A DNA stretch of 58,525 nucleotides, taken from Candidatus Nealsonbacteria bacterium (GTDB lineage Bacteria > Patescibacteriota > Minisyncoccia > Minisyncoccales > PWPS01). The translations under genes were made by a program, and so were the position numbers. The stretch covers positions 1-58,525 of the forward strand of contig PUMQ01000004.1 of NCBI GenBank assembly GCA_003551435.1. Direction: 5' to 3'. Shown here one piece after another: positions 19,792 through 55,955 of the stretch. The notes beneath the pieces are model-generated. The model made no database searches and was not told the origin of the DNA. It worked only from the letters and a program-made list of their open reading frames with translations. Numbering within the stretch: the first letter of the stretch is position 1; each line of letters opens with the position of its first letter.

Positions 19792-20331
19792 ATGAGAACG
19801 ATGCTCAGCCATTTTTGGGAAGTAATGAAGGTGGTTGTTATTGCTCTGCTTATCGTAATACCGATAAGGATTTTTTTGTTCCAGCCGTTTATTGTCCGCG
19901 GGTCTTCCATGGAACCCAGCTTTCATGAATCCGATTACCTCATCGTGGACCAGCTGTCTTACCGTTTTCGGGATCCGGAAAGAGGGGAAGTGGTTGTTTT
20001 TCAGTATCCGCACGATCCTTTCAAAAGGCACATTAAGAGAATTATCGGTCTTCCCGGAGAAGAGCTTGTTGTTCAAGAAGAGAAGATCCTTATTACAATT
20101 GACGGAGAGGAAACAGTTTTAAGCGAAGACTATCTTCCAAGACCGATTCCGATGGGACGGGAAGAGGTTTCTCTCGGAGAAGGAGAATATTTTGTAATGG
20201 GAGATAACAGGGGCGCTTCTTTTGATTCGCGAAACTGGGGTCCTCTTCCGGAAGAAAATATTGTAGGAAAAGTGCTTATCCGAATTTCTCCTTTTAGCGC
20301 TTTTGCGTTTGTGGAAGCGCCGGATTACTGA
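19792..20331 (+). CDS. lepB: Signal peptidase I
   Basis: GSSMEPSF (catalytic Ser box), KRIIGLPGE (Lys box), GDNRGASFDSRNWG. ATG 19792 is preferred over TTG 19774. Confidence 0.9.
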   Translation: MRTMLSHFWEVMKVVVIALLIVIPIRIFLFQPFIVRGSSMEPSFHESDYLIVDQLSYRFRDPERGEVVVFQYPHDPFKRHIKRIIGLPGEELVVQEEKILITIDGEETVLSEDYLPRPIPMGREEVSLGEGEYFVMGDNRGASFDSRNWGPLPEENIVGKVLIRISPFSAFAFVEAPDY

Positions 20332-20453
20332 CAACCAATGACAAATGACAAATGACAAATGACAAATGACAAATGACCAATGACAAATGACCGTTGATAA
20401 GGAAGTCATAAGTCATAAGTTATAAGTCATGGGTCATAGGTCATAAGCCATAA
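20329..20453. repeat. Composite heptanucleotide-repeat element: 9 x (A/C)AATGAC, 13-nt spacer, 7 x GTCATAR
   Basis: The left array (20329-20391) begins with the lepB TGA stop codon itself. The right array (20405-20453) ends 6 nt before the hisS ATG. The arrays are inverted relative to each other, matching at 5 of 7 positions per unit. Confidence 0.9.
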
Positions 20454-21734: not shown

Positions 21735-21737
21735 AAA

Positions 21738-21780
21738 GTGACAAATGACAACTATAATGATCGTAGATTATAGGTCATAA
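21738..21780. repeat. Miniature version of the heptamer element (GTGACAA ATGACAA ... GTCATAA) with an embedded TATAAT
   Basis: Two left units (21738-21751), TATAAT at 21753-21758, and one right unit (21774-21780), between hisS and the HIT gene. Confidence 0.6.
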
Positions 21781-21791
21781 ACCAATTCATC

Positions 21792-22109
21792 ATGGACTGT
21801 TTATTCTGTAAAATAATAAAAAAGGAGATTCCTTCAAAAACGGTTCTTGAAAATGAGAGCGTGATTGTTTTTGAAGATATTAATCCCAAGATGCCGGTTC
21901 ACTTGCTTGTCGTTCCTAAAAAACACATTGCCTCGGTAAATGAAATAAAAGAGGAAGACAAGGAACTTATCGGAGAGCTTTTTCTTACCGCCAAACAGGC
22001 GGCGGAAAAGGTTGGAGTAAAAGACAAAGGATACAAGTTGTCCGTTCATGTTGGAGAAGGAGGAGGGCAGGAAATATTCCACCTCCACATTCACCTTCTT
22101 GGAGGATAA
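21792..22109 (+). CDS. HIT (histidine triad) family protein
   Basis: CLFCKI.., and the histidine triad HLHIHLLGG at the C-terminus. Confidence 0.9.
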   Translation: MDCLFCKIIKKEIPSKTVLENESVIVFEDINPKMPVHLLVVPKKHIASVNEIKEEDKELIGELFLTAKQAAEKVGVKDKGYKLSVHVGEGGGQEIFHLHIHLLGG

Positions 22110-47250: not shown

Positions 47251-47258
47251 AGATATTT

Positions 47259-47311
47259 TTGAAATTTGAAACTTGAAATCGTTTTAAAATTTGAAATTTA
47301 AAATTTAAAAT
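47259..47311. repeat. AT-rich heptanucleotide tandem repeats (TTGAAAT/TTAAAAT, 3 + 4 units)
   Basis: TTGAAAT TTGAAAC TTGAAAT at 47259-79, then TTAAAAT TTGAAAT TTAAAAT TTAAAAT at 47284-311. Confidence 0.8.
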
Positions 47312-47322
47312 TGCCCCGAGGT

Positions 47323-52798: not shown

Positions 52799-52832
52799 AA
52801 ATGTGCGGTATTTTGTCTTTTGTCTTTTTTCG

Positions 52833-52873: not shown

Positions 52874-53707
52874 ATGGCAGAAAAAATTAAAGCGGGGATT
52901 GCCGGCACGGGAATGGTCGGCGGAGCTCTGGAGAAGTACCTTGAAAAAAGAGGGGGCGTTGAAATTTTTGTTTACGACAAAGGGCAAAAAAGAGGCTCCA
53001 TGGAGGAGGTAAACAAAGCGGATACTGTTTTTATTTGCGTTCCAACCCCATACCAAGAAGAAGCAGGGGGATTTGATTTAAGTTATGTGGAAGAAACGTG
53101 CCAGAACCTGAAAGGTGAAAAAACGGTAGTTATCAAATCTACCGTTTTGCCGGGAACCACGGAAATTTTGCAAAAAAAATATCCCGCCCACAGGTTTCTG
53201 TTTAATCCCGAGTTTCTGGTGGAAGCCAAAGCTCAAGAGACAATGGAAAAGCCCGACAGGCAGATTATGGGATATACCGAAAAAAGCCTAGAGGAAGCGG
53301 AAAAAGTAATGGAAATTCTCCCGGACGCTCCTTATAAAAAGACAATGCCCGCTACCGAGGCGGAAATGGTTAAGTATTTCGGAAACAATTTTCTTTCCGT
53401 AAAGGTAATTTTTGGAAATTTAATGTACGATATCTGCCAAAACTTGGGCATTGATTACGATATGGTCAGAGAAGCGGCTTCCAAAGACCCGCGAGTAGGC
53501 CCGAGTCACCTTGAAATTTTCCACGGAGGGTATAAAGGATATGGCGGGAAATGCCTTCCGAAAGACACCAAAGCGCTTATCCAGCTTGCCAAAACCGTGG
53601 GGGCGGACGCTGGTCTTTTGGAAAAAGTGGAAGAAATAAATAACCGCCTTATGAAAGAACAGGGGATAGATGATCCGGAAAAATACTCGGAAAGAAACCC
53701 CTATTAA
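52874..53707 (+). CDS. UDP-glucose/GDP-mannose dehydrogenase-family protein lacking the C-terminal UDP-binding domain
   Basis: Rossmann fold IAGTGMVGGAL, VPTP, STVLPGTT, NPEFLVEAKA, and the catalytic-Cys motif GGKCLPKD. Only ~45 aa follow the Cys, and the stop abuts a heptamer repeat element. Confidence 0.7.
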   Translation: MAEKIKAGIAGTGMVGGALEKYLEKRGGVEIFVYDKGQKRGSMEEVNKADTVFICVPTPYQEEAGGFDLSYVEETCQNLKGEKTVVIKSTVLPGTTEILQKKYPAHRFLFNPEFLVEAKAQETMEKPDRQIMGYTEKSLEEAEKVMEILPDAPYKKTMPATEAEMVKYFGNNFLSVKVIFGNLMYDICQNLGIDYDMVREAASKDPRVGPSHLEIFHGGYKGYGGKCLPKDTKALIQLAKTVGADAGLLEKVEEINNRLMKEQGIDDPEKYSERNPY

Positions 53708-53841
53708 CTGACAAATAACCAATGACAAATGACAAATGACAATTTTATCTAACAATCAAATGTCAAGTGTTAAATGTTAAATGTTGTTAGTAGTCATAAG
53801 TCATGGGTCATAAGTCATAGGTCATAGGTCATAAGCCATAT
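53706..53841. repeat. Composite heptanucleotide-repeat element: 5 x (A/C)AATGAC-type units, 52-nt spacer containing GTTAAAT x2, 7 x GTCATAR
   Basis: The left array (53706-53740) overlaps the TAA stop. The middle has GTTAAAT GTTAAAT GTTGTTA (53769-89). The right array (53793-53841) runs into the ATG at 53840. The right arrays here and at 20405-20453 both have 7 units ending GTCATAA GCCATA. Confidence 0.9.
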
Positions 53842-55630
53842 GTCAGATATTCTTAAAAAACTACTGGAGATTCTTCCTTCCAAAGACAAGGCGAAGCTGG
53901 GAATTCTTGCCGTTATGATGCTTGTGGGAGGGTTTCTGGAGGTTTTCAGTATCGGGATTATTGCCGGATTTGTGGCTGTGGTTGCCGATCCGGGCATTCT
54001 TTTTGATATAGAGCCCCTAAAGAGAGTGCTTAACTTTCTTGGTATTGAAACTTCAAGAGACATTCTTTTTTACGGAGCGATTTTTCTGATTATCGTTTTT
54101 TTGCTTAAAAACGCCTATATCGTTTTTTATAAATACGTTAAAGCGCGTTTCATCTATCACCGCTACAAATCAATTTCAAGGAAGCTCTTCGGAATTTATA
54201 TGAACGTTCCTTACTCTTTCCATTTAAGAAGAAACAGCGCCGATCTTACCCGGAATGTGGTCACCGAAGCAAAAGCGCTGGCTACCAATGTTATGCTTCC
54301 TGTTTTGGAAATTGCCACCGAAACGGTGATGATTTTGGGGGTAATTACTCTTCTTTTTGTGGTTGAGCCTACGGTTACTTTGGTAACTATTTTTCTTTTG
54401 GGGGGAGTGAGCGCTCTTTTCTTAAAAGTGGTGAGAGGACGGACCAAAAAGCACGGAGAAAGGGCGCTTGAAGAGAGGGCGAGGATAATAAAAACGGTAA
54501 ACGAGGGAGTGGGAGGATTTAAAGACGCTACCGTAATGAACAGACAGAACTGGTTTACAAAGAGATTTGAAAAAAGCGTGGATGCTCTCTCTAGAGCGGA
54601 GATATTCAGGCAGGCGGTCAAGGCAACGGTACGCCCGGTAATAGAAACTATCGCCGTTTTGGGGGTTCTTCTTATCGCCCTTCTTCTTTTGAACAAAGGG
54701 TACTCTATCGGAGCTTTGGCTTCCGTTCTTGCTTTGTTTGTTCTCTCTATTCAACGCCTTCTTCCCGCTATAAACAGCATTGTCGGCAACTACAACAGTT
54801 TGCGCTACCACGCTTATGCCCTACAGCCGATATACGAGGATATGACCGCTCTTAAAGAGTATGAAGAAAAAAAGAGAGAGTTTGTTAAAGATAAAATGCC
54901 CCTAAAAGAGAGCATAGAAGTTAGGAAAGTTACCTTTGTTTACCCGGAAACAAAAGAGGAAGTGCTAAAAGACGTCTCTCTTTCTGTTAAAAAGGGTTCT
55001 GCTATCGGGCTTGTGGGAGCTACCGGTTCAGGGAAAACGACCCTTGTTGACCTGATTTTAGGGCTTTTAGAGCCTACCAAGGGAGAGGTTTTAGTTGACG
55101 GGAAGGATATAAAAGAAAGTGTTAACGAGTGGCAGGAAAATATCGGCTATATCCCCCAGTTTATCTATCTTTCCGACGACAGTATTCGCAACAACATTGC
55201 TTTTGGCATTGATGAAGAAAAAATAGACGAAAAAAGAATAAAAGAGGCGGTAAAAGCGGCCCGGCTTGACGAGTTTGTGAAGAGTTTGCCCGAAGGGCTT
55301 AGCACTTTCATAGGAGAAAGGGGAATTCGCTTGAGTGGAGGCCAAAGACAGAGAATAGGAATTGCCCGAGCTCTTTACAACGATCCGGAAGTGCTTGTTA
55401 TGGACGAAGCGACCTCCTCTTTGGACAATGTAACAGAAAAGTTCGTCATAGAGGCGATAGAACGGCTCAAAAAAGAGCGTACCCTTATTATCATCGCCCA
55501 CCGGCTTACCACCGTTAAGAACTGTGATACCCTTTATCTTATAAAAAAAGGTAAAATAGCCGCTCAAGGGAGCTACGAAAAGCTTTTAGAAAACAAAGAC
55601 TTCAAAGAAATGACCGACTCGGGGAAATAG
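53840..55630 (+). CDS. ABC exporter, fused permease and ATPase (MsbA-like)
   Basis: Six-TM N-terminal domain, Walker A GATGSGKTT, signature LSGGQRQRIGIARAL, Walker B VLVMDEATSSLD. Confidence 0.9.
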   Translation: MSDILKKLLEILPSKDKAKLGILAVMMLVGGFLEVFSIGIIAGFVAVVADPGILFDIEPLKRVLNFLGIETSRDILFYGAIFLIIVFLLKNAYIVFYKYVKARFIYHRYKSISRKLFGIYMNVPYSFHLRRNSADLTRNVVTEAKALATNVMLPVLEIATETVMILGVITLLFVVEPTVTLVTIFLLGGVSALFLKVVRGRTKKHGERALEERARIIKTVNEGVGGFKDATVMNRQNWFTKRFEKSVDALSRAEIFRQAVKATVRPVIETIAVLGVLLIALLLLNKGYSIGALASVLALFVLSIQRLLPAINSIVGNYNSLRYHAYALQPIYEDMTALKEYEEKKREFVKDKMPLKESIEVRKVTFVYPETKEEVLKDVSLSVKKGSAIGLVGATGSGKTTLVDLILGLLEPTKGEVLVDGKDIKESVNEWQENIGYIPQFIYLSDDSIRNNIAFGIDEEKIDEKRIKEAVKAARLDEFVKSLPEGLSTFIGERGIRLSGGQRQRIGIARALYNDPEVLVMDEATSSLDNVTEKFVIEAIERLKKERTLIIIAHRLTTVKNCDTLYLIKKGKIAAQGSYEKLLENKDFKEMTDSGK

Positions 55631-55646
55631 TTTTTAAAAATCAATT

Positions 55647-55955
55647 ATGGAAGTTGTATTCTACGGGAAATCTGTACAAAAATTTATAAAATCACTAAAT
55701 AAATCAACTGTTGCAAAAACTATCCGTACAGTGGAACTCTTAGAGTGCTTCGGGAATAAACTTGGCATGCCATATAGCAAAAAGATAGACGAAAATCTTT
55801 TTGAGCTGAGAATAAGAGGGTCTCAAGAAGTAAGGATTATCTTTACTTTTAGTAAAAATAAAGCAATTCTTCTTCACGGATTTATCAAGAAAGAGCAAAA
55901 AATACCTAAACGTCATCTTAGAATAGCATGGGAAAGGAAAAGGGGGCTTGACTAA
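55647..55955 (+). CDS. higB: Gp49/HigB-type (RelE superfamily) toxin
   Basis: 102 aa: ..FIKSL.....AKTIRTVELLE..G..L.MPYSKKIDENLFELRIRG.QEVRIIFTF..NKAILLHGFIKK.QKIPK, typical of phage Gp49-like toxins. Confidence 0.75.
   Translation: MEVVFYGKSVQKFIKSLNKSTVAKTIRTVELLECFGNKLGMPYSKKIDENLFELRIRGSQEVRIIFTFSKNKAILLHGFIKKEQKIPKRHLRIAWERKRGLD

Follow-up and report, generated by a model that had tools for sequence, protein, structure and literature searches.

Inverted heptamer arrays filling stop-to-start gaps in a Candidatus Nealsonbacteria genome point to a dispersed, strand-biased repeat family

Why should ~131 nt of heptamer repeats fill the complete gap between the stop codon of one gene and the start codon of the next? 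This question is raised by a locus on contig PUMQ01000004.1 (assembly GCA_003551435.1) of a Candidatus Nealsonbacteria bacterium, analyzed here over 58,525 nt (positions 1 to 58,525 of the forward strand, hereafter the window). The window is contig C8 of a genome named G000 in the following, which comprises 599,488 bp on 21 contigs with ~41% GC. The element in question, located on the forward strand at 53708-53839, had been regarded by a first-pass annotation as the second full copy of an element at 20329-20453, both being explained by a common origin as a mobile or templated element. The explanation we favor, with a confidence only somewhat better than even, is that of a hairpin repeat resembling repetitive extragenic palindromes (REP) and short tandemly repeated repetitive (STRR) sequences, which is copy-pasted, expanded by slippage, cotranscribed with its neighbors, and tolerated mainly in one orientation.

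The gene upstream of the element (52874-53707, forward strand, 277 aa) encodes a short UDP-glucose/GDP-mannose dehydrogenase-like protein (open reading frame list; Pfam PF03721 and PF00984) and ends with TAA at 53705-53707. The left arm starts directly behind this stop codon and consists of five heptamers (CTGACAA ATAACCA ATGACAA ATGACAA ATGACAA, 53708-53742), the first two of which are degenerate. It is followed by an inner spacer (TTTTATCTAACA, 53743-53754), an inner array of GTYAAAT-type units (ATCAAAT GTCAAGT GTTAAAT GTTAAAT GTTGTTA GTA, 53755-53792), and a right arm of seven heptamers (GTCATAA GTCATGG GTCATAA GTCATAG GTCATAG GTCATAA GCCATAT, 53793-53841), all read on the forward strand. 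The last of these units supplies the AT of the ATG (53840-53842) opening the downstream gene, a PglK-like ABC exporter of 596 aa (53840-55630, forward strand; Pfam ABC_membrane and ABC_tran). Tandem Repeats Finder recovered the three period-7 arrays at 53709-53742 (4.9 copies), 53758-53785 (4.0), and 53792-53845 (7.7). Matches with at most two mismatches numbered 12 for TGACAAATGACAAA (0.66 expected) and 10 for GTCATAAGTCATAA (0.22 expected), counts reached in none of 100 shuffles. Furthermore, the region 53300-54300 is identical in an independent assembly (Logan contigs of the sole public run containing this DNA, although this run may be the sample from which the window was assembled), and an error peculiar to one assembly is unlikely. 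The annotated stop-to-start heptamer element was thereby confirmed on all of these grounds. Five left units had been described as AAATGAC-type and overlapping the TAA; their number is correct, while the TAA precedes the first unit without any overlap. The spacer had been said to hold GTTAAAT heptamers, and an inner array is indeed present, its units being better written as GTYAAAT; units of this type form the right arm in a sister TTGAC/GTCAA family, which has ~5 loci of its own in G000 (e.g., mraZ-rsmH on contig C7).

The related copy within the window is of a short-loop subtype and lies at the lepB-hisS junction (20332-20453, forward strand), with a left array at 20332-20391, the loop CGTTGATAAGGAA at 20392-20404, and a right array at 20405-20453. 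It is framed by the lepB TGA (20329-20331) and the hisS ATG (20460), lepB encoding an S26 signal peptidase and the identity of hisS being confirmed by Pfam. Tandem Repeats Finder reported period-7 arrays at 20337-20391 (7.9 copies) and 20403-20453 (7.3). As annotated, the right arrays of both copies comprise seven units each and share the ending ...GGTCATAG GTCATAA GCCATA.

Extension of the search to the entire genome returned ~19 loci with ATGAC/GTCAT heptamers, so that further copies of the proposed element do exist. Nearly all of them follow one plan when read in gene direction: a stop codon or the 3' end of a tRNA, (A)ATGACM units, a short unique loop, GTCATAR units, 0-13 nt, and an ATG. 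Among exact units, ATGACAA (27), ATGACCA (12), GTCATAA (39), and GTCATAG (30) are the most frequent; arrays reach up to 19 units, and the arms are often unequal (e.g., ~5 vs 19 or 4 vs 14 units). Many copies have loops in common, e.g., CCGGTAATAAAGAA; frequent forms of the loop are CCG-GTAATAAAGAA and CCG-TTGATAAGGAA, and the rare variant GTCATAAGCCATA recurs at the same place in different copies. Five copies, including the one at 53708-53841, carry a longer core (TGACAATTTAATTAATRGTCAAATGTCAARTGTTAAATGT...) with ~50 nt of non-array sequence, to which the inner spacer belongs, and align end to end with 71% column identity. The shared loops and the alignment of the five composite copies through their non-array core argue for common descent, and support the assignment of both window copies to one dispersed family rather than to independent slippage, as had been proposed. 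With its nested inner array, the copy at 53708-53841 is, however, of a composite subtype and does not simply duplicate that at 20329-20453, so that the notion of a second copy holds on the level of the family. Altogether, G000 harbors 59 period-7 arrays, 49 of them in gene junctions. Single units outside arrays occur 25-126 times in the whole genome, a count in the range of compositionally matched 7-mers and unlike a DNA uptake signal. Carriage by phages or plasmids was not indicated by any BLAST match, a search in which the low-complexity filter may hide arrays.

Comparison with 60 relatives (genomes of 0.3-1.0 Mb, 13 of the same genus) revealed the corresponding empty sites. Two relatives connect the dehydrogenase and ABC exporter genes by CCTTAT-TAA-AAA-ATG and TAA-TTTAAA-ATG, respectively, i.e., by 3-6 nt, whereas the window reads CCCTAT-TAA-[131 nt]-ATG. 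The exact span from stop to start is therefore largely a consequence of insertion into a 3-6 nt spacer. The lepB-hisS junction measures 8-15 nt in four genomes of the same genus, and across the junctions occupied in G000 the median spacer is 69 nt vs 11 nt in the same-genus genome G013. In a further relative (L220:1398-1549), the spacer at the dehydrogenase-ABC exporter junction measures 152 nt and contains a hairpin of another kind, not built of heptamers (GAACTCCGCTTTTTAAAGTGGAGTT...).

The occurrence of arrays is patchy and each lineage uses its own units. ATGAC arrays gave 65 matches in G000 and none in the 60 relatives; TTGACNN arrays gave 219 in G011, 98 in G006, 16 in G012, and none in most others, while TTTTCAA arrays were found in G012, G006, G018, G004, and G011. 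In total, G006 contains 69 period-7 arrays and G013 two, both of low complexity. At the lepB-hisS junction, four other same-genus genomes carry inverted arrays built from other units (AATTTCC/GGAAATT, TTTTCAA/TTGAAAA, and TTTGACA with GTTTTGM). Beyond these relatives, the paired ATGAC...GTCAT layout was detected in 15 metagenomic contigs, 14 of them low in GC, at sites including S3-L16 (in two organisms), DnaK-DnaJ, behind a class-II aminoacyl-tRNA synthetase gene, and running into a prepilin leader peptide. The DnaK-DnaJ junction is occupied in G000 as well; its S3-L16 junction is empty, with a plain 34-nt spacer. Single GTCATAR arrays appear in many phyla (cyanobacteria, Bacteroidota, Gammaproteobacteria, and Patescibacteria). 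In the prepilin case (metagenome contig Ga0082335_1000069, L151:330-470), the right arm continues into the coding sequence, where GTCATAT GTCATCA GTCAAAA GTCAAAA GTCGGGG encode the leader MSSVKSQKS in front of GFTLIEL.

Variation in unit number was observed directly: two near-identical metagenomic populations (L147 and L155) differ by exactly one 7-nt unit of the right arm, as replication slippage would produce. A paired insertion or deletion affecting both arms was ruled out by the alignment, which places the one extra unit in the right arm only.

The copies show a pronounced bias in placement and orientation. Relative to their flanking genes, 17 are oriented in sense and two in antisense direction (binomial p ~4e-4 by hand arithmetic), counting as flanks only open reading frames with homologs plus tRNAs. 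The 17 include two copies that had automatically been scored as divergent and convergent: the present one (C8:53709), whose upstream gene is supported by Pfam and relatives, and the copy on contig C21, whose short S18-like flanking frame was read from the sequence. The antisense copies are located upstream of dnaK (C13:3173) and, in degenerate form, at C16:8690. Of 463 co-directional gaps, 28 hold a period-7 array, as do 5 of 66 convergent ones, while just 1 of the 62 divergent gaps is occupied, which amounts to a depletion. The genes for tRNA-Phe and tRNA-Gly enclose one copy and tRNA-Lys precedes another, so the element has no fixed link with translation. The sense strand is rich in A in every copy (32-49% A in the arms), and in about half of the copies the upstream reading frame terminates within the first left-arm units. 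Intact ATGACAA units provide ATG and TGA in all three frames, to which the degenerate outer units add one TGA and one TAA, and the right arm of the copy at 53708-53841 contains TAA or TAG in all three frames.

Both flanking genes are genuine and intact. The dehydrogenase-like protein has no C-terminal domain according to Pfam, and its truncation by the element was considered; this was dismissed because the form found in relatives has the same length of 276-277 aa. The N-terminus of the ABC exporter (MSDILKK) aligns with 10 homologs of 593-601 aa with an invariant M1, the nearest named homologs stemming from metagenome-assembled genomes of Candidatus Pacebacteria/Paceibacterota, and the HisS start MPKK is conserved across 12 genomes of the same genus. 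These alignments rule out internal start codons downstream of the arrays and establish 53840 and 20460 as the true starts. From the missing Shine-Dalgarno sequence in both cases, the first-pass annotation had concluded that the element must supply or tolerate translation initiation. Tolerance suffices: with an SD-like core in just 68 of the 603 open reading frames of G000 (~11%), the lack of such a sequence behind the element is the norm. A TANNNT peak 12 bases before the ATG (range 12-15) suggests that many mRNAs of this genome are leaderless or have very short leaders. The origin of the named exporter homologs, together with the genome sizes of the relatives, places the organism in the Patescibacteria (candidate phyla radiation).

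The sequence at 53708-53839 belongs to a repeat family that is lineage-specific and non-coding. In every copy, two mutually inverted arrays of TGAC-core heptamers enclose a short unique core, with (A)ATGACM units to its left and GTCATAR units to its right. In the favored scenario, this copy would have been inserted into a former stop-start spacer of 3-6 nt inside an operon, and whole copies would have spread to other gene junctions by some copy-paste or templating route, their arms lengthening and shortening by single 7-nt units through replication slippage. The element would then be transcribed within the polycistronic mRNA, where it could form a weak periodic hairpin. Copies would survive only where expression remains unbroken; they are located at the 3' ends of genes and in inter-cistronic gaps, with divergent promoter gaps being avoided. 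Nearly all copies have the orientation that yields an A-rich transcript, places stops in all frames just behind the upstream reading frame, and preserves the downstream ATG; selection would be the cause of this bias. For the cell, the consequences are probably neutral or mild.

Several observations weigh against this scenario. The first one concerns the mobility postulated at the outset. Empty sites in relatives are in line with it; target-site duplications, which had been suggested as a check, were not found in comparisons of filled and empty sites. Sharp termini or defined terminal inverted repeats were not detected in the copies either, their outer units decaying gradually, and Y1 transposases (PF01797), known as REP-associated tyrosine transposases (RAYT), are absent from G000 and the array-rich G011. 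No mobilizing enzyme was found, and the description of the element as mobile is based on the distribution of its copies. Second, occupancy shows no dependence on how long the ancestral spacer was: it amounts to 12% for spacers of 0-5 nt, 14% both for 6-20 nt and for 21-60 nt, 9% beyond 60 nt, and 5% for overlapping junctions, a pattern that random insertion per base would not produce. Third, junctions occupied in G000 are often occupied in G006 by arrays of other units: a sensitive measure found a period-7 signal in G006 at 6 of 7 ATGAC junctions of G000 vs 22 of 137 other junctions, and a three-way comparison gave an odds ratio of 5.3 (p = 0.004). An apparent positional independence of both genomes (odds ratio 0.9) had been obtained with a strict detector and was overturned, since degenerate arrays had been missed. 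As the odds ratio falls to 2.4-3.5 (p = 0.05-0.16) among non-overlapping junctions only, most of the shared placement comes down to which junctions tolerate an insert in the first place. Fourth, the strand bias of 17:2 and the purine-rich linkers in both arms, which make the element no true DNA palindrome, could reflect a function on the RNA level and not just tolerance. Finally, the antisense strand does not resemble a canonical terminator in a consensus scan, so that selection against the antisense orientation stays a proposal.

G006 possesses Y1/RAYT genes flanked by GC-rich hairpins instead of heptamer arrays. These RAYT-like Y1 transposase genes (G006 C25:48916-49584 and C22:602-1324) have GC-rich palindromes on both sides (CCCATGTCCAACCCGGGGTTGGACATGGGG; TCCCCGAGGT..ACCTCGGGA) and represent the classic REP-RAYT arrangement in a genome of the candidate phyla radiation (CPR). 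In G000, an open reading frame of 92 aa with a GIY-YIG-type N-terminus, assigned by eye (C12:421-699), is situated inside a hairpin at C12:385-740. The ends of this hairpin, (G)TCATTCTGAGCG... and ...CAGAATGAC, can be written as (G)TCATTCTGAGCGAGGCGAAGAATC ... GATTCTTCAGTCGCTTCGCTCCTTCAGAATGAC, and their (G)TCATT...AATGAC matches the heptamer core. Hairpins without reading frame that start with GTCATTC (three types) gave ~96 half-site matches in G006, two in G000, and none in G013; the GTCAT/ATGAC core of the G000 heptamers recurs at their ends, and in G006 they often directly adjoin TTGACNN arrays. Strong homologs of the GIY-YIG protein are present in G000, G006, G011, G001, and G025, but not in the array-bearing G012, G004, and G018, so that their distribution follows the arrays only in part. 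A link between the GIY-YIG hairpin elements and the heptamer arrays is only suggestive.

Among the alternatives, a functional intercistronic RNA fares best, though we consider it unlikely. Here, the stop codon would sit at the 5' foot of the hairpin and the start codon at the 3' foot, and a terminating ribosome would melt the outer helix, thereby exposing the AUG or being handed over (translational coupling in a genome poor in Shine-Dalgarno sequences); or else the hairpin would serve as an RNase III-type processing or stability site. Folding of the sense transcript, on which the hairpin of the favored scenario is based as well, predicts helices of 5 bp (AUGAC/GUCAU) separated by A.A internal loops, with -35.6 and -33.7 kcal/mol for the two window copies (z = -4.6 and -3.8) and z below -3 in most copies; the antisense strand of the two window copies folds better (-47 and -37 kcal/mol). 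In the copy at 53708-53841, the outermost predicted helix pairs CUGACA (53708-53713), right behind the UAA, with UGUCAG (53842-53847), overlapping the AUG. The start region is predicted to pair with the 25 nt that follow the stop at a probability of 0.48 in this copy and of 0.53, 0.34, and 0.34 in three others. A functional RNA is further favored by the sense-strand bias, by copies within essential operons such as S3-L16, by an occupancy that is governed per junction and not per base, and by left and right cores co-varying between families (TTGAC/GTCAA, ATGAC/GTCAT, TTTTCAA/TTGAAAA, and AATTTCC/GGAAATT). Such co-variation, however, is equally expected of any inverted-repeat DNA element. As a general rule, the juxtaposition of stop and start at the base of the hairpin was rejected, as it holds for only 4 of 13 copies and is missing in the other nine. 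The frequently very unequal arms, the copies behind and between tRNA genes, where no translation takes place, and the two antisense copies do not fit such a functional RNA either. Moreover, G013 manages essentially without arrays, and close relatives have 3-15 nt at the same junctions. A comparison with Rfam gave a best match of 24.4 bits, on the opposite strand, at a gathering threshold of 90, with one site lacking any match.

A further possibility, which we regard as distinctly unlikely, is that the arrays are the product of an active system targeting gene junctions in a fixed orientation. It would involve the machinery of the GTCATT...AATGAC hairpin elements, one of which carries the GIY-YIG gene, and/or a hairpin that holds stop and start together and preserves termination-reinitiation coupling in operons poor in Shine-Dalgarno sequences.

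It is improbable, in our estimation, that the arrays act as multivalent RNA or DNA binding sites for a factor reading heptads with a TGAC core, forming a post-transcriptional or nucleoid-level network, similar to that suggested for the TAACTGA repeats of Beggiatoaceae, in which the unit would co-evolve with its factor in each lineage. Such a network would account for the dominant unit that each genome uses uniformly over many loci, and for the occurrence of identical GTCATAR arrays in many phyla. The right arm, being more expanded and positioned in forward orientation just upstream of start codons, is also reminiscent of the TAACTGA repeats of a genome poor in Shine-Dalgarno sequences (PMC4679880). 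No candidate factor was found, though, and several unit families coexist in one genome and even in one junction. Neither the near absence of period-7 arrays from the same-genus G013, nor the missing enrichment of single units outside arrays, nor the genes beside the copies, which have no common functional theme, agree with a network of this kind.

Very improbable is a transcription signal, in which hisS or ABC exporter mRNAs with a short leader or none would be started from -35-like ATGACA/TTGACA hexamers in the left arm and a -10-like box in the right arm, or in which the hairpin would be a terminator. ATGACA does match TTGACA at five of six positions, the sister families contain perfect TTGACA units, and many genes of G000 look leaderless. 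Yet a scan of both window copies for sigma-70 promoters (consensus -35/-10, spacing of 16-18 nt) returned one weak match at 9 of 12 positions (ATGACA-16-AACAAT), with counts at shuffle expectation, and a consensus scan for intrinsic terminators (GC-rich stem and U-tract) returned none in either window copy on either strand. The right-arm hexamer CATAAG is devoid of a conserved final T, the sense strand has no U-tract behind the hairpin, and arrays are depleted in divergent promoter gaps.

Independent local slippage at each site or an assembly artefact is hardly credible: heptanucleotide repeats are slippage-prone and over-represented in bacteria (PMC4679880, PMC4692102) and a one-unit polymorphism was seen, but several loci have non-repeat loops and cores in common and rare variants such as GTCATAAGCCATA at the same place, and the separate Logan assembly gave the identical sequence.

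How does the element relate to known repeat classes? REPs reside in transcribed gaps within or behind operons and avoid divergent promoter gaps. The arrays described here likewise favor co-directional and convergent over divergent gaps, matching REPs in placement, and they share with REPs and bacterial interspersed mosaic elements (BIME) the species-specific, dispersed occurrence and the potential to form hairpins. REPs, however, are GC-rich imperfect palindromes of ~35 nt with a conserved 5' GTAG that are mobilized by RAYT, whose genes they flank, while the present arms are A-rich tandem heptamers in a genome without Y1 transposase; in palindrome and transposase they do not correspond. Miniature inverted-repeat transposable elements (MITEs; Correia, BOX, Nezha) are similar in being short, non-coding, and multi-copy, with inverted arms, presence or absence between close relatives, and nested insertions. 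They differ from the present element, whose arms are tandem arrays of variable number and for which neither defined terminal inverted repeats nor target-site duplication was found. With regard to an autonomous partner, no transposase was found, and the GIY-YIG gene in its hairpin follows the arrays only in part.

The STRR2 unit TTGGTCA is the complement of the TGACCAA variant of our element. In many bacteria, no long simple repeats are more over-represented than those with heptanucleotide units, whose origin and role are unexplained (PMC4679880, PMC4692102). The heptanucleotide long simple sequence repeats of Mrazek et al. (2007) and the cyanobacterial STRR consist, like the present arrays, of head-to-tail 7-nt units that are intergenic, patchy, slippage-prone, and found at many loci (PMC4679880, PMC4692102). 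They have been described as direct arrays, unlike the inverted pair around a conserved core reported here, which runs from stop to start and is co-oriented at 17:2. The closest case on record, the TAACTGA repeats of marine Beggiatoaceae (MacGregor 2015, PMC4679880), likewise involves heptamers with stop codons that directly precede start codons in forward orientation, in a genome with few Shine-Dalgarno sequences. Their downstream genes show no functional theme and include ribosomal protein genes, their function being unexplained (PMC4679880). Of these sets, which have two to six copies each, 169 are direct and a single one is inverted (PMC4679880), whereas inverted pairing is the rule in G000 and the left arm adjoins the upstream stop. 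The GGGAATC heptamers of Xanthomonas (Rehm 2015, PMC4692102) are intergenic, sometimes arranged as inverted stem-loop pairs, and often occupy the same junctions in related species with differing length and sequence. They are G-rich and quadruplex-forming (PMC4692102), in contrast to the A-rich arrays with TGAC core. With at least three head-to-tail 7-nt units, an intergenic position, many loci, and abundance above chance, the element belongs to the descriptive class of heptanucleotide tandem repeats, its paired, inverted stop-to-start layout being new. Our literature search found no description of such arrays in CPR bacteria.

G000 therefore offers a clean study system: a tightly packed genome of 0.6 Mb with paired inverted arrays that are strongly biased to one strand and fit from stop to start even in essential operons. 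Among close relatives, the number of array matches varies from practically none to hundreds, a contrast that makes testable the mode of spread, the reason for a period of 7, and the effect on the expression of neighboring genes in organisms poor in Shine-Dalgarno sequences. The data also contain a warning for annotation, as upstream reading frames often end inside the left array and one metagenomic right array encodes a prepilin leader peptide.

Additional repeats and reading frames were noted in the window. A motif search located a miniature copy (GTGACAA ATGACAA ... GGTCATA) at 21735-21791 on the forward strand, between the hisS stop and the next open reading frame (ATG at 21793), which may be either a starting point for the element or a decayed remnant of it. 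A third heptamer array of ~8 TTTGAAA/TTTAAAA units is intergenic at 47258-47312, and similar AT-rich period-7 arrays are present on contigs C5 and C12. A short (TTTTGTC)x2.6 array at 52811-52828 lies in the divergent gap that precedes the dehydrogenase-like gene and adjoins a predicted promoter-like site, TTGTCT-17-TAAAAT. Just 3' of the ABC exporter gene, an open reading frame of 102 aa (55647-55955), not found in the fetched part of G013, resembles by eye a RelE/HigB-type toxin and shares 65% identity with a sequence of G006.

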